Source of the DNA: an uncultured delta proteobacterium
GTDB lineage: Bacteria > Myxococcota_A > Polyangia > Polyangiales > Polyangiaceae
DNA length: 64,000 nucleotides
Reading direction: 5' to 3'
Assembly: GCA_963782055.1 (NCBI GenBank)
Contig: CAWAIF010000003.1
Span: 6,823,948 to 6,887,947 of the forward strand
Shown here: positions 1,901-45,071 of the stretch, piece by piece
Layout of the letters: each line of letters begins with the position of its first letter
Numbering within the stretch: position 1 is the stretch's first letter
Made by a program: the position numbers and the translations under genes
The notes under the pieces: generated by a model
Told to the model about the DNA's origin: nothing
The model's input: the letters and a program-made list of their open reading frames with translations, nothing else
The model's database searches: none

Positions 1901-3304
1901 TCAATCCGCGCCCTTGATGCTCGCCACCGGGTAGAGCCGCTTCGCGACGCGCGCGATCTCCTCCGCCTCCAGCACCGCGAGCACGGCGTCCAGGTCCTTG
2001 TAGACGTGCGCGCACTCGTCCAGCGGGATGTGCCGGTGGTTGCTGACGATGCCCTCGACGGTCACGCCGCCGAGCGTGCGCTTCACCGTCGCCATCTCCT
2101 GGTCGATGCGATCCTGCTTGTGCTCGAGCTGCCGCCGCGCCTTGCCCCGCGCCATCACCCGGCCGGAGCCGTGGTTGACCGAGCACGCGCTCGCGTACGC
2201 GTTGGCGTCGGCGAAGAGGATCGCCGCGCCCTCGTACATCGAGCCCGGGATGAGGCACGGGTGGCCGGTCTCCTCCCACGCGGTGCCCGCGAGGTCCGGG
2301 TGGCCCGCCGGGAAGGCCCGCGTCGCGCCCTTCCGGTGCACGAAGCCCCGTTGCGTCGTGCCATCCGGCAGCACCAGCGTCTCCTGCTGGACCAGGTTGT
2401 GGCTGATCTCGTAGTAGACCTCCACGTCGGCGCCGAAGACCTCCTGCGTCGCCTCCCGGATGCCGTTGACGATGACGTGCCGGTTGGCGACGGCGAAGTT
2501 CGCCGCGGAGTTGTGGTGGGCCCAGTACTCCTCGCCGAGCGGCTCGTCCGCCCGCAGCCACGACTCCTCCCGCCGGCTGGACGGCAGGCCCCGCAGCCGC
2601 GCGCCCTCGTAAAAGAAGTGGTTGGCGGTCTGCCAGCCGTAGCCCCGGCTGCCGCAGTGGACCATCACGTACACCTCTCCGGTGTCCCGGTCGCACTGCA
2701 TCTCGACGAAGTGGTTGCCGCCGCCGACGGAGCCGAGCTGCGGGAGCACGCTGGCGTACGCCTTCTGCACCTTGCGCAGGTCCGCGTCTTCCGGCACCGG
2801 GATGTACTGCCGCTCGCAGAGGTCGGCCGAGACGCCGAGCGCCTTGGCGCCGTGCCGCAAGATCTCCTCCGTCTGGCTCGCCTTGAACTTCGGCATGAGC
2901 TCCGGCCGGTGCCGGCCCTTGCCCGTCGCGATCCGCCGCTCCACCTCCCGCACCCACCGCTCCCGCGCGTACTTGCTCCGCACCGCGCCGGCGCCGAGGT
3001 CGGCCTTCATGGTGAGGATGCCGCAGGAGATGTCGTAGCCGGAGCCGCCCTGCAGGATGGTGTCGCTCGTGACGATGACCGAGCCGACCGGCACGCCGTA
3101 GCCGGTGTGCGTGTCGGGCATGAGGTACGCGCCGATGACGCCCTCGAAGCTGGCGCCGGCGTGGATCTGCTGCCACACCGTCTCCTCCGACGCCTCGTAG
3201 AGCGCCTCGGAGAGGAAGGCGTGCGCGTCCACCTTCATGGTCCCGGTCCTCGGGAGCACGTAGTGGTTCTCGGTCACCTTGGTGACGGCGTACTTGAGCG
3301 ACAT
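1901..3304 (-). CDS. rtcB: RNA-splicing ligase RtcB (3'-phosphate/5'-hydroxyl nucleic acid ligase)
   Basis: 467 aa. Conserved RtcB motifs are visible in the translation (GGNHF, MVHCGSRGYG, HNHA-like). Full-length family member. Confidence 0.93.
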   Translation of the reverse strand: MSLKYAVTKVTENHYVLPRTGTMKVDAHAFLSEALYEASEETVWQQIHAGASFEGVIGAYLMPDTHTGYGVPVGSVIVTSDTILQGGSGYDISCGILTMKADLGAGAVRSKYARERWVREVERRIATGKGRHRPELMPKFKASQTEEILRHGAKALGVSADLCERQYIPVPEDADLRKVQKAYASVLPQLGSVGGGNHFVEMQCDRDTGEVYVMVHCGSRGYGWQTANHFFYEGARLRGLPSSRREESWLRADEPLGEEYWAHHNSAANFAVANRHVIVNGIREATQEVFGADVEVYYEISHNLVQQETLVLPDGTTQRGFVHRKGATRAFPAGHPDLAGTAWEETGHPCLIPGSMYEGAAILFADANAYASACSVNHGSGRVMARGKARRQLEHKQDRIDQEMATVKRTLGGVTVEGIVSNHRHIPLDECAHVYKDLDAVLAVLEAEEIARVAKRLYPVASIKGAD

Positions 3305-3560
3305 GGCGTGGTCACCGACGGGGTGAGGCGAGCGTACCGGACATCGGTCCGCGGGAGGTCACGGCGTCGTCGGGCCCCGGGCACTGCGCATGCGAACCCG
3401 CATGATTCTTTGCGGAGGCACGCGTTCAGGAACGTAGCGGGCCCACACGCACCCCACTAAAGTGCAATCCATCGCCGTCGTGCGTTGACGAGCTGGAGTT
3501 CCTCCTCCAGGCTGCTCGGGCGAGGAGGGAGCCATGAGCAAGCAAGCATCCGGGCGGTGG
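3063..3560. repeat. Direct repeat copy 1 (~500 bp, ~92% identical to 5263..5765). Spans the rtcB 5' coding end plus its upstream region up to an ATG-(GCAA)2 tract.
   Basis: Direct alignment of the two stretches in the sequence. Divergence begins exactly at the GCAA tract on one side and inside rtcB codon ~80 on the other. Confidence 0.8.
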
Positions 3561-3700
3561 GAGCTGCCAGTAGCCTGCGCTCGCCGCGTCGGAACGGAGG
3601 CGGAGGTCTCGTAGGCGACGCGCACCACGTGGGGGATGGCGGCCATCGTTCAGGTTGAGGTCCGCGTTGGGCACCCTCTCCCGCATGAGCCACGCGAGAT

Positions 3701-3756
3701 CACTTTAGTGGTCTATTTTGTGGACGACGGCAAACATTTGGACCACTTTAGTGGTC
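3701..3756. promoter_or_regulatory. Two palindromic operator-like sites with core CACTTTAGTG. Site 1 is 3701-3710. Site 2 is the 16-bp palindrome GACCACTTTAGTGGTC at 3741-3756, which abuts the hipA-like ATG at 3758. The same 10-mer in inverse orientation (CACTAAAGTG) occurs at 3455-3464 and 5652-5661.
   Basis: Seen directly. Inverted-repeat arms CCACT/AGTGG separated by TT. Position overlaps the RBS/start of the downstream toxin gene, as is typical of HTH-antitoxin autoregulation. Confidence 0.45.
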
Positions 3757-3757
3757 C

Positions 3758-5020
3758 ATGCCTCGCTGTACGCTGGAAATATTCGTGGGGAAGCGCTGGG
3801 CGCGCGCGGGCGAGGTGCACGTCACCGACGAGGCGGCCGGCTACGCCGGTCCAGCCCGCTTCGAGTACGACTTCGACTACCTCGAGGGCCACGGGGATGC
3901 GCTCGGGGCCGTCGACGCGCGCGCGGTGTCGTGCCGCTATCCACTCGCTTACGACGTGCGCGACGAACCGCGCTGGCCCGCGTTCTTGCTCGACGTGATC
4001 CCGTCCGGCGCGGCGAGACGCTTCTGGGAGCGGGAGCTCGGGGTCGCGAACGTTGCTTCCTCCGACTGGGCCGTGCTCCTGCGCGGCGGGGGCAATCCGC
4101 CCGGTAACCTTCGCATCGCCGAGGCGGCGCCACCGCCACCCAGGGCGCACCGGGGCTTCGCCCGCGCAGACGTCGTGGCGCGGGCAGAGCGCTTTCTCGA
4201 GCACGCTCGCGCCCACGGTGCGGAGGTCGCCGGAGCCACCGGCGCGGGAGGCGACTCTCCCAAGCTGCTCTTGCGCGAAGATCGCACCGGGCGCTTCCAC
4301 GCCGACGGCGCGATCGACGACGCGGCGACACGCGCGCTCTGGCTCGTGAAGTTCCCGCGATCGCGCAAGGACGTGGACCGGCTCGTGCTGGAGACCGAAG
4401 CCGGGTACCACCGCGTCGCGCGGCGCTTCGGCGTGCGCGTGCACGCCGACCTCACCTGGGAGAGTGACTGCCTCTTCGTACCGCGCTTCGATCGGGTGCT
4501 CGAGGAAGACGGGGGGGTTCGCAGGCTCGGCCTGGAGAGTCTGTGCTCGCTCGCGGGGGTCTCCGACTTCGGGGTGCCGGTCACCAAGGAGGCGCAGGCG
4601 GAAGCGCTCGTGAAGTTCGCCTCGGATCCGGTAGAGGCGCTTCACGAATTCGTGCTCCGCGACGTGCTCAACGTCGCCCTCGGCAATACCGACAATCACG
4701 CGCGGAATACCGCGGTCCTCAAGGACGAGCGCGGCAGCGTCGCGCTGTCACCCCTCTACGATTTCGCCCCGATGCTCCTCGACTCCGAGGGCATCGTCCG
4801 CGTGTGCCGCTGGAGCGACGAGGTGGCCGGGTTCCCGCGCTGGACGGCGGCGCGCGAGGCGCTCGGTGAAGGCGGGATCAGCTGGCTGAGATCGATCGCC
4901 CATCGCGTGCGCACGCTGCCGCGGTGGCTGGACGAGGAGCGCGTCCCCCAGCGGGTTCGCGAGGCGGTGCTCCCGCGCATCGCGCGCGTCGCGCACGACC
5001 TGGAGGAGGGCACGAGGTGA
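3758..5020 (+). CDS. hipA: HipA-like Ser/Thr kinase toxin-family protein (HipA C-terminal kinase fold)
   Basis: 420 aa. Catalytic-loop-like motif NTDNHARNTAV (compare HipA GATDGHAKNFSV), LSPLYDFAPM (compare LTPFYDIISA), and an N-terminal LEIFVGKRWARAGEV coupling-domain-like start. Confidence 0.78.
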   Translation: MPRCTLEIFVGKRWARAGEVHVTDEAAGYAGPARFEYDFDYLEGHGDALGAVDARAVSCRYPLAYDVRDEPRWPAFLLDVIPSGAARRFWERELGVANVASSDWAVLLRGGGNPPGNLRIAEAAPPPPRAHRGFARADVVARAERFLEHARAHGAEVAGATGAGGDSPKLLLREDRTGRFHADGAIDDAATRALWLVKFPRSRKDVDRLVLETEAGYHRVARRFGVRVHADLTWESDCLFVPRFDRVLEEDGGVRRLGLESLCSLAGVSDFGVPVTKEAQAEALVKFASDPVEALHEFVLRDVLNVALGNTDNHARNTAVLKDERGSVALSPLYDFAPMLLDSEGIVRVCRWSDEVAGFPRWTAAREALGEGGISWLRSIAHRVRTLPRWLDEERVPQRVREAVLPRIARVAHDLEEGTR

Positions 5021-5280
5021 CCAAGGAGGAACGCGCGACGCTGCGCCGCGAGCTCTATGCCCGGATAGACCGCGGAGACATCGGGCTCGTGGAGGCCATC
5101 CGCACCATGCGCAGGATCGTCGGCAAGAGCCAGGTCGACTACGCGCGGCTCGTCGGGGTCAGCCCGCGCATCCTCAAGGAGATCGAGCGCGGCGTGGGGA
5201 ACCCGACAATGGAGACGCTCCGGAAGATCCTTCGTCCGTTCCGGCTCGACGTGGGCGTGCGCCGGGCGTCGTCACGATGA
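5017..5280 (+). CDS. XRE-family helix-turn-helix DNA-binding protein (HipB-like antitoxin candidate). Its GTG start overlaps the hipA-like stop (GTGA).
   Basis: VTKEERATLRRELYARI...QVDYARLVGVSPRILKEIERGVGNPTMETLRKIL is a typical XRE HTH. The 4-nt overlap suggests translational coupling. Gene order toxin-then-HTH is the reverse of canonical hipBA. Confidence 0.6.
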   Translation: MTKEERATLRRELYARIDRGDIGLVEAIRTMRRIVGKSQVDYARLVGVSPRILKEIERGVGNPTMETLRKILRPFRLDVGVRRASSR

Positions 5281-5506
5281 CCGAGCCGACCGGCACGCCG
5301 TAGCGGGTGTGGGTGTCGGGCATGAGGTACGCGCCGATGACGCCCTCGAAGCTGGCGCCGGCGTGGATCTGCTGCCACACCGTCTCCTCCGACGCCTCGG
5401 AGAGCGCCTCGGACAGGAAGGCGTGCGTGTCCACCTTCATGGTCCCGGTCCTCGGGAGCACGTAGTGGTTCTCGGTCACCTTGGTGACGGCGTACTGGAG
5501 CGACAT
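5174..5506 (-). pseudogene. Truncated duplicate of the rtcB 5' end (first ~80 codons only). Homology stops at the repeat boundary, after which the reading frame runs into unrelated sequence.
   Basis: MSLQYAVTKVTENHYVLPRTGTMKVDTHAF...GSVIVT matches the RtcB N-terminus at ~90%. Lies inside direct repeat copy 2. Confidence 0.7.
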
Positions 5507-5765
5507 GGCGAGGTCACCGACGGGTGAGGCGAAGATACCGGACACCGGTCCGCGGGAGGTCGCGGCGTTGTCGGCCCGCACACTGCGCATGCCAACCCGC
5601 ATGATTCTTTGCGGAGCCACATGTTCATGAGGGAGCGCGCCCACACCCGCCCACTAAAGTGCAATCCATCGACCGCCGTGCGTTGACAAGCTAGAGTTCC
5701 TCCCCCAGGCTGCTCGGGCGAGGAGGGAGCCATGAGCAAGCAAGCAAGCAAGCAAGCAAGCGCAA
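5263..5765. repeat. Direct repeat copy 2 of the rtcB 5'/promoter segment (partner of 3063..3560). The GCAA tract at its end is expanded to 6 units.
   Basis: Sequence alignment to 3063..3560. Confidence 0.8.
5736..5759 (+). repeat. Tetranucleotide microsatellite (GCAA)6. It lies immediately after an SD-preceded ATG (5732-5734) and upstream of an out-of-frame lipoprotein signal peptide.
   Basis: Seen directly. GGAGGgagccATGa then GCAAx6. The duplicated copy at 3538-3545 has only 2 units. Confidence 0.9.
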
Positions 5766-40401: not shown

Positions 40402-41733
40402 TCAGTGGCACGCGCCGTCCACGCAGGTCTGCCCAGACCCACAGCATGCCCCATCGACGACACACGACGCCGGGCAGCAATCCTGAGCGCCACCTGGTAG
40501 CGTCATGCACGGTCCGCCGCAGCAGTGTCCCCCGCAAAGCCGTGCGCCGCCGTTGCCGCCGGAGATCGTGATGTTGCAGCACGTCTGGTCGGTGGTCGCG
40601 CAGACGGAACCAGGGAAGCAGCACTCGCCGCCGCACTGTGTCGCGGCGGCTGGACAGGTGCAGGTCCCGTCCGGGTTGCAGACATTTCCGCCCGTGCAGC
40701 ACGTCGTCGTCCCGTTCGCCGGGTTGGGACACACGTCCGCCGGGCCGCAGCACGTGTCGGTCTTCGCGTCGCAGGGCTGACCCTCCGGGCAGCACACCGT
40801 TCCGCCATTGCACGCCCGGTCGTTGGGGCAGCAGGTGCTGTCCGCCTCCGAGGTGCACGTTTCGGTGCCGCTATCGCAGCAGTTCTGGTTGCAGCTCGTC
40901 GTACCGCCCGGACAGCAAAGATGCTGCGCTTCGCTCGAGCATGTCGAGCCGTAGTCGCAACAGAAGTGGCCTTGACCCTCGACGCCGCACGGAACGGGGC
41001 AGCAGCCGAACTGGTTCCCGAGCTCGTTGCACTGGTCGTTGCAAACGTTGTCGGCGAGCACCGCGGCGACGATGACGACCGCGAGGCAGACAGCGAGCGG
41101 AATGCCGAAGAACTGTCCGTCCCAGACGGCCGCGCAGGTGACCAATCCCAAGAATACCGCCAAGGAGGCGCCCACCGTGCACTGCAGGTGGCAATTCCGG
41201 CAATTCTCCCCATCCTGCGGGTACTCCGGCTGCGCGGGAACCGACGACACTGACGAACCGTCAGCCGCCACGCACGTGCCCGACGACAGCACCTCCTGCA
41301 AGTGCTTGTAGGTGTCCAGGATGTGCTGCGACGCAGGTGCCACCCCCGCGTCGAAGGGCGTCCCGTCGGCGAAGTGCACCGTGCTCGCGTCGGCGTCCTT
41401 CGGAAAGGGCGCGAGCGGCTTGCCGTCGACGTCGCCGGTGACGACGGTGTCGCCGCGGAGCAGGTGGATGACGTGCTGCTCCTGCCCGCTGTACGCCGGG
41501 CCCTGCTTCACCGTCTCGCTCCAGCCCTGCGGGGTGGAGACGGCGGTCGCGTCGAACGCCAGCGACCCGTCGACGACGAGCCGCATCTCGGTCGACGTGG
41601 GCGACATGTCCATGTCGAGCTCGTTCGCGCCGTCGGTGACGGTGCGATGCCAGCCGCCATCGCTGGCCGTCGCGGTACACAGCGGCACCGAGGAGGACGG
41701 CGAATCGCTCGAGCAGCTGAGGACGCCGAGCAC
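40402..41733 (-). CDS. Membrane-anchored protein with an extremely Cys-rich C-terminal domain (CC/CCP/CCG clusters, ~60 Cys in 200 aa). The functional start is probably the ATG at 41806 beyond a pentanucleotide SSR.
   Basis: Upstream of the GTG at 41733 the main frame encodes ..PRARSVLAASGALLVLGVLSC (signal/lipobox-like) with no start codon. Two internal hydrophobic helices, then a C-rich tail. Confidence 0.62.
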   Translation of the reverse strand: MLGVLSCSSDSPSSSVPLCTATASDGGWHRTVTDGANELDMDMSPTSTEMRLVVDGSLAFDATAVSTPQGWSETVKQGPAYSGQEQHVIHLLRGDTVVTGDVDGKPLAPFPKDADASTVHFADGTPFDAGVAPASQHILDTYKHLQEVLSSGTCVAADGSSVSSVPAQPEYPQDGENCRNCHLQCTVGASLAVFLGLVTCAAVWDGQFFGIPLAVCLAVVIVAAVLADNVCNDQCNELGNQFGCCPVPCGVEGQGHFCCDYGSTCSSEAQHLCCPGGTTSCNQNCCDSGTETCTSEADSTCCPNDRACNGGTVCCPEGQPCDAKTDTCCGPADVCPNPANGTTTCCTGGNVCNPDGTCTCPAAATQCGGECCFPGSVCATTDQTCCNITISGGNGGARLCGGHCCGGPCMTLPGGAQDCCPASCVVDGACCGSGQTCVDGACH

Positions 41734-41800: not shown

Positions 41801-42271
41801 CGACATCACGTTTCCCCTTTCGTGACACGCCCCCCCCCGGTGGCGACGCGTGAACGCCATCCTCGGCCTGTCCACCTCCGAAGACAAGGCACGAAGGCAA
41901 GCCATCAAAGAATGAGTAGGAGGTCGTCGCACACGCGCGCGCTCCTGCCGAACTGGTGTCCGCGCCGTCCGCGCCACCACGCCCCGGCCTCGCGGCGCGG
42001 GATGGACCGCAGCTCATTCCATTGTAATGATCGACGGATGGCCCTCGGTCGACACCTGCAGCTCGCCGCGACTGCCGCGTTCCTCGTGGGGTGTGGCGGG
42101 ATCGTCGCCGCGCCTCCCGATGCCGGTGCAGGCGCCGCCGCGCGAGGCTCGGGGTTCGCCCTCGGGGTGACGCGCTGACGACGGCGCGCCCGGTTCTGGC
42201 CATCCCCGGATCAGCGCGCGCGAACGACGATCGGGCGGGCACCCGCCGGCAATCTCCGGCGACGAGAGTGC

Positions 42272-42649
42272 TCACCCCGTGCGCCGGCCGGCGCGGGGTC
42301 GGGCGCCCTCGGCCATGCGCGCGCGGAGCAGCTTCTTCACCAGCGAGGTGGGCAGCGGCCGGTCCGGACCGAAGTGCAGCGCGCTCTTCGTCTTGTCGTA
42401 GACGGCGAGGTCGGCCGCGAGCGTGCGCAAGGTCGTCCCGCTGAAGGGGTAGTACGAGCAGCCCCTGGAGGTGGCGGAGAAGCCCGCGATGACCTTCCCC
42501 TCGTGGCGGAAGGCGGGCAGGCGGTAGCTGATGCACTCCTCCGCGTCGGGGACGAGGGCGCGGATGGTCTTGCGCAGCTCCTCGAGCAGCGCGCGGCTCT
42601 TCGGGGGCACGCCGGCGAGGTACGCGTCGATGCCGGGGTCACGTTTCAT
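42272..42649 (-). CDS. DUF1801 (YdhG-like) domain protein, near-identical second copy
   Basis: Translation identical or nearly identical to 38032..38409. Confidence 0.68.
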   Translation of the reverse strand: MKRDPGIDAYLAGVPPKSRALLEELRKTIRALVPDAEECISYRLPAFRHEGKVIAGFSATSRGCSYYPFSGTTLRTLAADLAVYDKTKSALHFGPDRPLPTSLVKKLLRARMAEGARPRAGRRTG

Positions 42650-42786
42650 CTGAGCGTCTCCTCCTCGAGGCGCCGGCGCTCGGGGCCCATCACGGCGCGC
42701 TGACGGGCTCGGCCGAAGCAGCTGTCAGCCGCACCGGATCGTACGCGATGACCACCTGCCTGGCGTTCCACGTTTTCCACGTTTCA

Positions 42787-42851
42787 ATTTCCCGAACGGG
42801 AAATTTCCGTTTGCCAGGACTCATCGGGGAGCTACGTTTCCCGAACGGGAA
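42787..42851. promoter_or_regulatory. Two palindromic operator-like sites: ATTTCCCGAACGGGAAAT at 42787-42804 and TTTCCCGAACGGGAAA at 42836-42851. The proximal site ends 5 nt before the hipB-like ATG at 42856.
   Basis: Seen directly. Perfect inverted repeats TTTCCCG-AA-CGGGAAA. The arrangement parallels the 3701..3756 sites. Confidence 0.5.
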
Positions 42852-42855
42852 AATC

Positions 42856-43113
42856 ATGGCGGAACGGACCAAGAGCGAACCAGACTTCCCGAGCGGGATC
42901 ATTCGAACGCCGAAGGACATCGGCGCGTGGGTGCGCCGCGCGCGGAGGGCGAGCGGGAAGACGCTCGCGGAGGCCGCCGCGCTCACCGGCGTCGGGGTGC
43001 GCTTCCTCCACGAGCTGGAGCACGGCAAGGAGACCGCGTCCCTCGGCAAGGCGCTCCTGGTGCTCCACCGCATGGGACTCGTGCTCGCGATCCGCGAACG
43101 GCGCGCGCGATGA
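42856..43113 (+). CDS. hipB: HipB-like XRE-family HTH antitoxin candidate
   Basis: 85 aa, ..IGAWVRRARRASGKTLAEAAALTGVGVRFLHELEHGK.. Its stop overlaps the hipA ATG (ATGA). Confidence 0.7.
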   Translation: MAERTKSEPDFPSGIIRTPKDIGAWVRRARRASGKTLAEAAALTGVGVRFLHELEHGKETASLGKALLVLHRMGLVLAIRERRAR

Positions 43114-44346
43114 CGCGCAGGCTGGTCGTCGTCCACGGGCTGCGACGCGTCGGTCACCTCGAACCGAGCGACGACCGCATGACGTTCGCGTACGACCCGG
43201 CATGGGTCGCCTCTCCGGACGCCTTCGCGATCTCCGCTCAGCCTGCCGCTGGACGGGAACTTCGATGCGACGCGCGCCACGCGGTTCTTCGCGAACCTCC
43301 TGCCCGAGGCGAACGTACGGACGCTCATCTGCCGCCGTCTCGGGCTCTCCGGGTCGAACGACTTCGGCCTCCTCGCCGCCATTGGTGGGGAATGCGCGGG
43401 AGCGCTCTCCATCCTTCCGGAGGGCGTCGACCCGGCGGAGCACGCGAACGAGTACGAGGAGCTGGACCGGGCGAGGCTCGAACAGCTGGCCACGAGCTAC
43501 GAGGCGCTGCCCATCGTCGACGGGTCCGGCCGCGCCCGGCTCTCCCTCGCCGGCGCGCAGGACAAGCTGCCCGTGAGGATGGACGGCGATCGCATTCTCT
43601 TGCCGATCGGCAACTCGCCGAGCTCGCACATCCTCAAGCTCCCCAACCGCAACTACAAGCATCTGCCGGCGAACGAGGCGCTCGTCATGGAGCTGGCGCG
43701 GCAGGTGAAGCTTCCAGTCGTGGCGACGACGTGGCGTGCCCTCGGAGAGGAGGGGATGTGCATCGTGGAGCGCTACGACCGCGTGGTCCGGGGCGGCGAG
43801 CTCCGTCGCGTGCACCAGGAGGACTTCTGCCAGGCCATGGGCCTCTCCTTCAGCACGAAGTACGAGGAGGAGGGCGGCCCGTCCTTCGCGAGCTGCGTCG
43901 AGCTGGTACGCGAGCACTCGGTCGTGCCGCTCGCCGACGTCGACGCGCTCCTCGGCTGGCTCGCCTTCGACGCGATCGCCGCCAACGCGGACGGTCACGG
44001 CAAGAACCTGTCGCTGCTCCTCGGAGGAGGGCCGAGGCTCGCTCCCTTCTACGATCTGGTCTGTACGCGAGCCTACGAAGGTCTCGACCGGCGCCTGGCG
44101 ATGAGCATCGGCGACGAGCGCGACCCGGATCGGCTGCGGCCCGAGCACCTCGACGATTGCGCCGCCGCGCTCGACGTGAAGCCGTGGCTCCTCCGCGCGA
44201 CGTTCGAGCGGATGGCGGACTCGATCCTCCAGCGGCTCGACGCCACGGTCGAGGCCGCCGGGGTGGGTGAGTCGCCCGCCGTACGACGCACCGTGCCGCT
44301 CGTGCGGAAGCAGGCGAAGCGCTGGCTTCGAGAGCTGGGCGGGTGA
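43110..44346 (+). pseudogene. hipA: HipA-family Ser/Thr kinase toxin gene with a +1 frameshift at ~43233-43237. The N-terminus is in one frame and the rest of the protein (from ISLSLPL) is in the next.
   Basis: Frame A reads MTRRLVVVHGLRRVGHLEPSDDRMTFAYDPAWVASPDAFAIS. Frame B reads LSLPLDGNFDATRATRFFANLLPE...IGGECAGALSI...DGHGKNLSLLLGG..FYDLV to 44346. One extra nucleotide in atcTCCGctc. Confidence 0.7.
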
Positions 44347-44348
44347 CG

Positions 44349-45071
44349 TCAGAACGCGCGCATGAAGGTCAGCTCGGGCATGTACGCGATGGCGCCTCCC
44401 GAGCCGAACGCGGCGGCGATCTTGAGCGGCGCCACCATGAAGCCGTAGCGATCGTTGCCGAATCGAAGACCCAGGCCGGTCGTGACGTAGAAGGGCCCGG
44501 CGACCTTCCACGCCTGCACGGGTTGCTGTCCGTAGACATCGTCCTTCACCACGAGCGTCATGTCGACCGGGGCGCCGAAGTCGGCCATCCCGAAGCCGAA
44601 GAGCACGTAGGGGCGGAAGCCGAAGGCGGTCTGCGTGAGCGGATGCGAGCCGAGCACCCAGGTCGCACGCGCCTCCCACATGATGTTGGTGATTGGGAAG
44701 TTGGTGACGTGGACGCTCCCCCAGTCGAAGTAGAGGCCCCAGCGGAGGCCGAGCAAGACGCCGTCGGTTGGCGCGAGGTCGAGCTCGCCCATGAAAATGC
44801 CGGCGGGCCCGCCGAAGCCCGGGCTCACCTTGGCCGCGCCCGACACCACCGAGCTCTGCGCGTTCGGGAAGACCGGGCCGTTCGCTTCCGCGCAAATCCA
44901 CTCGGTGCTCGCGCAGACGTTCGCACCCGACGGGTGGAAGACGGTGGTGAACCCGAGGGAGACGCCGAACCAGACGCGGCGGGGCTTCGTCCGCTTGCTG
45001 CCGGCGGCGAGTCCGGCCCGCGGGAGCGCCAGCAGCGCGAGCGAGACGGCGAGCGCCGCGATCGTGCGCAT
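44349..45071 (-). CDS. Small outer-membrane beta-barrel protein, paralog of 38439..39170
   Basis: MRTIAALAVSLALLALPRAGLA signal. ~70% aa identity to the paralog. C-terminal ..YMPELTFMRAF. Confidence 0.6.
   Translation of the reverse strand: MRTIAALAVSLALLALPRAGLAAGSKRTKPRRVWFGVSLGFTTVFHPSGANVCASTEWICAEANGPVFPNAQSSVVSGAAKVSPGFGGPAGIFMGELDLAPTDGVLLGLRWGLYFDWGSVHVTNFPITNIMWEARATWVLGSHPLTQTAFGFRPYVLFGFGMADFGAPVDMTLVVKDDVYGQQPVQAWKVAGPFYVTTGLGLRFGNDRYGFMVAPLKIAAAFGSGGAIAYMPELTFMRAF

Follow-up and report, generated by a model that had tools for sequence, protein, structure and literature searches.

A hipBA toxin-antitoxin locus of a Polyangiaceae-like myxobacterium with a one-base frameshift in hipA and predicted, regularly phased HipB operators

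Results

Organization of the hipBA Locus

We analyzed a window of 64,000 nucleotides (the whole stretch of DNA under study, contig CAWAIF010000003.1 of assembly GCA_963782055.1) and describe here a hipB-hipA gene pair on its forward strand, in which the toxin gene hipA changes reading frame after its 42nd codon. The locus is a chromosomal type II hipBA toxin-antitoxin (TA) operon of a Polyangiaceae-like myxobacterium, and as such of a known kind. It comprises the following features.

42788-42803 (palindrome, no strand): O1, distal predicted HipB operator, 16-bp perfect palindrome TTTCCCGAACGGGAAA, centered about 60 nucleotides (nt) upstream of the hipB ATG
42811-42838 (forward strand): candidate promoter, TTGCCA (42811-42816), 16 nt, TACGTT (42833-42838), weak and recognized by eye
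42837-42852 (palindrome, no strand): O2, proximal predicted HipB operator, identical to O1, starting 49 bp after it and ending 3 nt before the hipB ATG
42856-43113 (forward strand): hipB, 85 amino acids (aa), ATG at 42856 and TGA at 43111-43113, helix-turn-helix (HTH; XRE/Y4mF-type) protein, probable antitoxin and autorepressor, intact
42885-42900 (palindrome, no strand): O3, degenerate third copy of the predicted operator, CTTCCCGAGCGGGATC, inside the hipB codons F-P-S-G, 48 bp after O2
43110-43235 (forward strand): hipA 5' segment in frame 0, codons 1-42 (M1-S42), MTRRLVVVHGLRRVGHLEPSDDRMTFAYDPAWVASPDAFAIS, ending in DAFAIS
43234-43235 (forward strand): frameshift site, CC in place of the single C of all relatives, turning the Ser42 codon from TCG into TCCG, a 1-nt insertion
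43237-44346 (forward strand): hipA 3' segment in the +1 frame, codons 43-411 and the stop at 44344-44346, holding what remains of the N-domain and the whole kinase core
43110-44270 (forward strand): hipA open reading frame (ORF) as the sequence stands, 386 aa, of which 42 are native and 344 are out-of-frame residues rich in Arg, Pro and Ala
43573-44346 (forward strand): 257-aa ORF of the public record (identical to P0005), GTG start, the first ATG, GTG or TTG in the kinase frame

Sequence inspection and translation of the three forward frames (42500-44600) confirmed that hipB (42856-43113) and hipA share an ATGA, with the hipA start at 43110, as had been proposed by an earlier model-made reading of the letters alone (hereafter the sequence-only reading). 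That reading assigned 41 codons to the first hipA frame; we find 42 native ones. From 43237 the +1 frame continues as LSLPLDGNFDATRATRFFANLLPE..., LSLPLDGNF... and on through NADGHGKN to 44346, and both translation and profile match agree with the earlier placement of the DGHGKN motif in this frame. A profile built from 24 HipA sequences matched frame 0 over positions 1-44 (34 bits) and the +1 frame over positions 43-410. The +1 frame carries S145 (43543-43545), K176, the catalytic D294 (43990-43992) and D315 (44053-44055). It is closed upstream by a stop at about 43180, and no ATG, GTG or TTG occurs in the kinase frame between 43183 and 43573. Consequently, the 257-aa ORF of the public record starts after the LSLAGAQDK loop and lacks both the S145 loop and the entire N-domain.

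The public record also contains a longer hipB call, with 121 aa from an ATG at 42748 (P0123; 42748-43113), which reads through both upstream operators and the likely promoter. In the four relatives that cover this region hipB starts at the ATG right after the proximal operator, corresponding to 42856 here, and the orthologs of these four relatives are 83-85 aa long with the same start context.

A Single Extra C Separates the Two hipA Frames

The lesion was defined by DNA alignment with five related hipBA loci from public assemblies (L001, L002, L083, L084, and L085), which together with the window share 67-89% nucleotide identity. All five read ATC TCG CTC AGC (Ile-Ser-Leu-Ser) at the position where the window reads ATC TCC GCT CAG C; the one-C form of the Ser42 region is ATCTCGCTC and the two-C form is ATCTCCGCTC. 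Because every one of these relatives has TCG where the window has TCCG, the lesion is one C inserted into the Ser42 codon. The one extra nucleotide that the sequence-only reading had placed at AFAIS|LSLPL is thereby confirmed and identified as a C. A 2-nt deletion in place of a 1-nt insertion was ruled out, as no residue is missing at this junction.

For protein analysis we joined 43110-43235 to 43237-44346, which yields a repaired HipA of 411 aa with the junction peptide DAFAISLSLPLDGNFDATR, spanning ...DAFAISLSLPLDG... across the lesion. Couple_hipA (PF13657; residues 7-101, 3.5e-24) and HipA_C (PF07804; residues 144-373, 2.6e-47) were both matched above their Pfam gathering cut-offs and each in a single unbroken stretch, and TIGR03071 was matched with 2.8e-23. 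The comparison with intact HipA homologs had been suggested earlier; aligned with 23 homologs (a 24-sequence alignment), the repaired protein runs gap-free across AFAIS|LSLPL and keeps all invariant columns. The motifs RLSLAGAQDK, HILKLP, NADGHGKN, and PFYDL are invariant in this alignment. A phmmer comparison with Escherichia coli HipA (3tpd) gave E=3e-42, with counterparts of the S150 loop, K181, D309/N314, and D332. Apart from the one lesion, hipA shows no decay.

The best NCBIfam match of the hipB product is TIGR03070 couple_hipB, covered in full (1-58/58, E=2e-12) with 46.8 bits, under the cut-off of 71.65. HTH_3 of Pfam was matched at 9.6e-5 with 22.8 bits against a cut-off of 23. The best match among solved structures is HipB(Lp) of the Legionella HipBST system (8ezt, E=9e-4). 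We therefore assign the protein to HipB as a probable member, on the grounds of its genetic context together with these sub-threshold profile matches. Taken as a whole, the locus has the toxin domains, the catalytic and ATP-binding residues, a coupled upstream HTH gene and repeated palindromic operators of a HipBA system. An uninterrupted toxin ORF that would produce the kinase is missing from the deposited sequence; it would be there if the extra C were an assembly error.

Frameshifts in Close Relatives and in the Window

The closest intact homolog is P0001 with 79% identity, and scans for HipBA loci found nothing nearer than 50% identity in genome contigs and 54% in metagenome contigs. Independent hipA frameshifts are present in three of the seven closest lineages (the window, P0001-P0004, L001, and L002), each at a different place. 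The window has gained 1 nt at codon 42, L002 has lost 1 nt near codon 103, and L001 has lost 4 nt near codon 143. The two relatives are hipBA loci from Logan assemblies (L001, 199-1442, SRR25528446; L002, 1846-3092, SRR33270677). Gene callers report a Couple_hipA protein and a 260-aa HipA_C protein in both, which mimics a tripartite system. In L083, from a sister sample with the synteny of L002, hipA is intact. A Syntrophaceae metagenome-assembled genome (MAG; L047) contains an intact hipA that is followed after about 100 nt by a second, partial Couple_hipA-like segment in another frame (4268-4570; 28 bits over profile positions 4-105).

The window itself was surveyed for further frameshifts. 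A GC3 (GC at third codon positions) frame plot was too noisy, and an ORF-lead test and codon-model segmentation were used instead. Among about 32 clearly coding ORFs, hipA was the only one with a coding signal that reaches far upstream of any start (130 codons; ORF-lead test). All other changes of frame on the same strand within the 64 kb were ordinary gene boundaries, according to the segmentation and subsequent boundary checks. The sequence around the lesion, TCTC[C]GCTC, contains no homopolymer run, and the chance that a lone random error falls into the 1.2-kb hipA gene is about 2%.

Predicted HipB Operators Are Conserved in Sequence and Phasing

The sequence-only reading described two palindromes that flank the module, with the proximal one 5 nt from the ATG. 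The two palindromes exist upstream as stated; the distance is 3 nt, and neither of them lies on the far side of the module, since both precede hipB and the third, degenerate copy is found within it. The exact TTTCCCGAACGGGAAA 16-mer occurs only at O1 and O2 in the whole 64 kb. Four of the five close relatives carry the O1 motif at the corresponding place (-67 to -70). The core TTCCCG-N2-CGGGAA recurs in the close relatives at about -69, -19, and +30 of the hipB ATG. Individual loci have degenerate sequences at one or two of these three sites, and the stretches that separate the sites lack conservation among the relatives. All relatives whose sequence includes O3 have the same codons CCG AGC GGG there, despite the overall nucleotide identity of 67-89%. 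This identity at synonymous sites suggests a constraint that would act also at the DNA level.

We then counted copies with up to 2 mismatches in those fetched loci (L003-L165) that had enough upstream sequence. At least two copies phased by 49-50 bp were found in 93 of 149 HipBA loci, compared with 0 of 166 control regions inside hipA. Exactly three phased copies, the last at or inside the hipB start, are the commonest state (77 of the 93 loci). The operator consensus is ataTTCCCGanCGGGAAtAt, and the loci represent, among other phyla, Myxococcota, Planctomycetota, Gammaproteobacteria, Desulfobacterota, and Bacteroidota. Because the same phased motif is found ahead of hipBA in so many loci (93 of 149) and phyla, we predict that the palindromes are genuine HipB operators. 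Together with the domains and alignments, these phased loci support the earlier view of a canonical hipB-hipA operon with HipB operators upstream. A literature search for the motif in combination with hipB returned only a primer, and no paper in the searched library links the motif to HipB.

The -10 element of the candidate promoter abuts or overlaps O2, and a TAnnnT-like hexamer is found directly 5' of the proximal operator in relatives, too. A scan of 42600-44500 for consensus sigma-70 promoters and terminators found nothing at the thresholds used. The layout of the candidate promoter would fit repression by occlusion.

Genomic Surroundings and a Second Hip Module

The neighbors of the locus are chromosomal housekeeping genes, encoding DnaK, a TamB-like and an Omp85-like protein, SurA, and acyl-CoA dehydrogenases. 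The DnaK of the window is closest to that of Polyangiaceae MAGs, the named ones being 76-82% identical. Just upstream of hipB and divergent from it lies a gene for a 125-aa DUF1801 protein (42272-42649, reverse strand); another protein of its 90% cluster is encoded on the same contig, hence a close paralog exists elsewhere in the genome. Further upstream, a 443-aa ORF (40402-41733, reverse strand) without a Pfam match is extremely rich in cysteine, with CC/CxxC repeats in its C-terminal half.

The sequence-only reading had also recognized a second HipA-family system of different architecture in the window. Indeed, an intact module with the reversed gene order, hipA before hipB, is present.

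3698-3713 and 3741-3756 (palindromes, no strand): 16 bp each, GAYCACTTTAGTGGTC, 43 bp apart, the proximal one ending 1 nt before the ATG
3758-5020 (forward strand): hipA-like gene, 420 aa, HipA_C 5e-28, intact
5017-5280 (forward strand): HTH gene with a GTG start and a GTGA overlap with the hipA-like gene

A half-site copy, CCACTAAAGTG, is found at 3454-3464. Immediately upstream of this second module (3698-5280) lies a full RtcB RNA ligase gene (1901-3304, reverse strand; 2.4e-85). Just downstream of the module, an ORF (5174-5644, reverse strand) weakly matches the RtcB profile over its first 36 positions (E=1.7e-4); it may be a remnant, or the match may have arisen by chance.

Discussion

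Proposed Working of the Module

By analogy with the family, HipB would act as a repressor and HipA as a toxic kinase. We propose that the 85-aa HipB binds the three phased 16-bp palindromes O1, O2, and O3 (48-49 bp from start to start) and thereby represses its own promoter, which would be located between and over O1 and O2. Translation of hipA would be coupled to that of hipB via the ATGA overlap. An intact hipA would yield the 411-aa HipA Ser/Thr kinase, and growth arrest would follow from phosphorylation of a translation factor. In the sequence at hand, ribosomes starting at the hipA ATG would produce 42 native and 344 nonsense residues. The kinase frame offers no start until past the nucleotide-binding loop, and hence no active toxin should be made. 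HipB and its operators would remain as an autoregulated remnant.

A Recent Mutation or an Error of the Assembly

We favor the reading that the extra C is a real and very recent inactivating mutation of the toxin, and give it a probability of roughly 0.57; that the base is present in the organism, beyond the assembly, is what we infer. The inactivated toxin and the sequencing indel are the two of the three explanations offered by the sequence-only reading that remain, while its third, programmed frameshifting, is not supported. If the C were instead a consensus or polishing error, the organism would have an intact 411-aa hipA, and its hipBA would be fully functional and unremarkable. We regard such an error as a serious but less probable possibility, clearly below even odds. 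It would account well for a lesion of a single base in an otherwise flawless gene with all invariant and catalytic residues kept, and the source resembles an unannotated MAG-type assembly in one 7.0-Mb contig. Furthermore, a frameshift is absent from all 160 HipBA loci of more distant origin, and natural disruption is therefore uncommon in the family at large. On the other hand, the extra C does not stand in a homopolymer, where long-read indels concentrate. About 32 coding ORFs in 64 kb show no other frameshift signature, so that the assembly cannot be called indel-ridden, and the odds of a random error striking hipA are about 2%. Of the six other closest lineages, two have hipA frameshifts of their own, one of them a 4-nt deletion (L001), which is not typical of a read error.

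Several points weigh against a real mutation. The extra C is known from the assembly. The source is a single contig of 7.0 Mb whose nearest named relatives are MAGs, which is typical of long-read metagenome assembly with residual 1-nt indels. The complete lack of secondary decay is equally expected of an assembly artefact. L001 and L002 are raw Logan contigs of unconfirmed accuracy, and they were found by a biased route, in the form of truncated products with HipA_C only that still score high. Finally, the survey of the window detects certain kinds of frameshift only.

A real mutation would place the locus among the chromosomal TA modules whose toxin genes are disrupted by frameshifts. It resembles these in the single early frameshift of the toxin gene, the retained antitoxin and operators, and the independent lesions in sister lineages; the only difference is the absence of further decay in the window hipA. 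A literature search on hipA frameshifts and pseudogenes returned mostly unrelated 'hip' loci, such as the heme-related hipA of H. influenzae.

Selected, Split or Recoded Toxins

The recurrent frameshifts of the clade (+1, -1, and -4), which fall in the N-terminal third of hipA, could also be selected states. They could then be intermediates on the way from bipartite HipBA to split HipBST-like systems, or 'cryptic' toxins expressed via rare translational or transcriptional frame errors. This idea comes from the kinase frame, which is kept in each case, and from the GTGA overlap at codon 155 in L001 and L002. We consider it quite improbable; if cryptic toxins were involved, a very small persister-like subpopulation would result.

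A split toxin already at work in the window is more improbable still, and we reject it; here the upstream fragment would serve as a HipS resembling an antitoxin, and the kinase would be translated separately from the downstream ORF. Functional tripartite split Hip systems do exist (PMC9438503; PMC8262856), and the locus shares with HipBST and HipB-HipA(N)-HipA(C) systems the placement of the N-terminal and kinase parts of HipA in different ORFs. Its HipB, moreover, has that of the Legionella HipBST system as its best solved match. The shifted N-terminal ORF of L001 and L002 terminates in a TGA sharing bases with the GTG of V155 (GTGA). However, tripartite systems are split cleanly after an N-subdomain of about 103-106 aa, with separate starts for the parts and with the Gly-rich loop retained in the kinase (PMC9438503). 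The window differs from HipBST in that a 1-nt insertion at codon 42 breaks the gene within the conserved core of the N-subdomain, away from the HipS/HipA(N) boundary at about 100-106 aa, and leaves no start from which a complete kinase could be made. Codon 155, where the kinase frame has its first start, lies past the RLSLAGAQDK loop with its counterpart of S150, and the 257-aa product would thus lack an essential kinase element. Since frame 0 stays open to 44270, termination-reinitiation coupling at 43573 does not apply. L002, in turn, loses 50 residues to out-of-frame sequence, and the matches of HipT to the repaired HipA are weak (E ~1e-10).

Least probable of all, and likewise rejected, is the programmed +1 frameshifting that the sequence-only reading had offered. 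Ribosomes would then skip a single base at ATC TCC G CTC, and full-length HipA would be produced in small, regulated amounts. In favor are the required shift, which is indeed +1, the perfectly preserved downstream frame and the appeal that a little toxin synthesis would have for a persistence switch. Against it, the site is not conserved (all 5 DNA loci read TCG and 23 of 23 aligned homologs are in frame), none of the 160 more distant loci from genome and metagenome scans is split across frames, the other frameshifted relatives differ in position and sign (-1, -4), re-pairing from UCC to CCG is poor with 2 mismatches (43215-43245, by inspection), the codon that follows in frame zero, GCU, encodes an amino acid and is neither a stop nor a hungry codon, and the 15 nt upstream hold no GGAGG-like Shine-Dalgarno-like element. 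The slippery codon and the stall at a stop or rare codon that are known from +1 sites of the prfB/RF2 type are thus both absent. An Rfam scan of 42000-45000 gave a lncRNA (long non-coding RNA) match at chance level only. Transcriptional slippage was ruled out, as no A/T run is present.

Comparison With Known HipBA Systems

The E. coli K-12 HipBA system (3DNV, 3HZI, 3TPD, 4YG7) is likewise a type II TA system of an autorepressing HTH protein HipB and a Ser/Thr kinase HipA, and its hipB stop overlaps the hipA start as well. The repaired HipA aligns with residues 6-322 of E. coli HipA, and RISVAGAQEK (S150), HIIKLP (K181), DGHAKN (D309), and FYD (D332) all find their match. The identity is only about 30%, however, and the toxin gene of the window is broken. 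The E. coli HipB operator consensus is TATCC-N8-GGATA. The central spacer of the hip operators of E. coli measures 8 bp and exceeds that of Shewanella by 2 bp, and the operators are unevenly spaced at 10, 21, and 10 bp (PMC4150777).

Closer in operator layout is the HipBA system of Shewanella oneidensis MR-1 (SO0705/SO0706; PDB 4PU3-4PU5), which has the order hipB then hipA and a toxin of N-domain and kinase core (repaired HipA against 4pu3, E=2.8e-41). The palindromes of S. oneidensis hipBA are 16 bp long and 34 bp apart, with the last one inside hipB (PMC4150777). The sites described here share the length of 16 bp, the 6-bp central part and the equal intervals, with 32-33 bp between them (about 49-50 bp from start to start) in place of 34 bp. 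In contrast, the half-sites are GTGTA/TACAC in S. oneidensis and TTCCCG/CGGGAA here, and S. oneidensis has four sites and the window three. Its hipB and hipA are 3 bp apart where the window has a 4-nt overlap, and in the window hipA is frameshifted.

Significance

The region is properly annotated as hipB followed by a frameshifted hipA, and not as a 257-aa 'HipA_C protein' beside a 121-aa HTH protein. Beyond annotation the locus itself has little significance. A real insertion would make it a further case of a chromosomal TA module in which the toxin has been lost and the autorepressor kept. Together with L001 and L002, it would then hint that this HipA clade is disrupted unusually often. The more useful by-product is the well-supported operator consensus, which applies to a large HipBA subfamily found in many phyla and may help in planning studies of its regulation.

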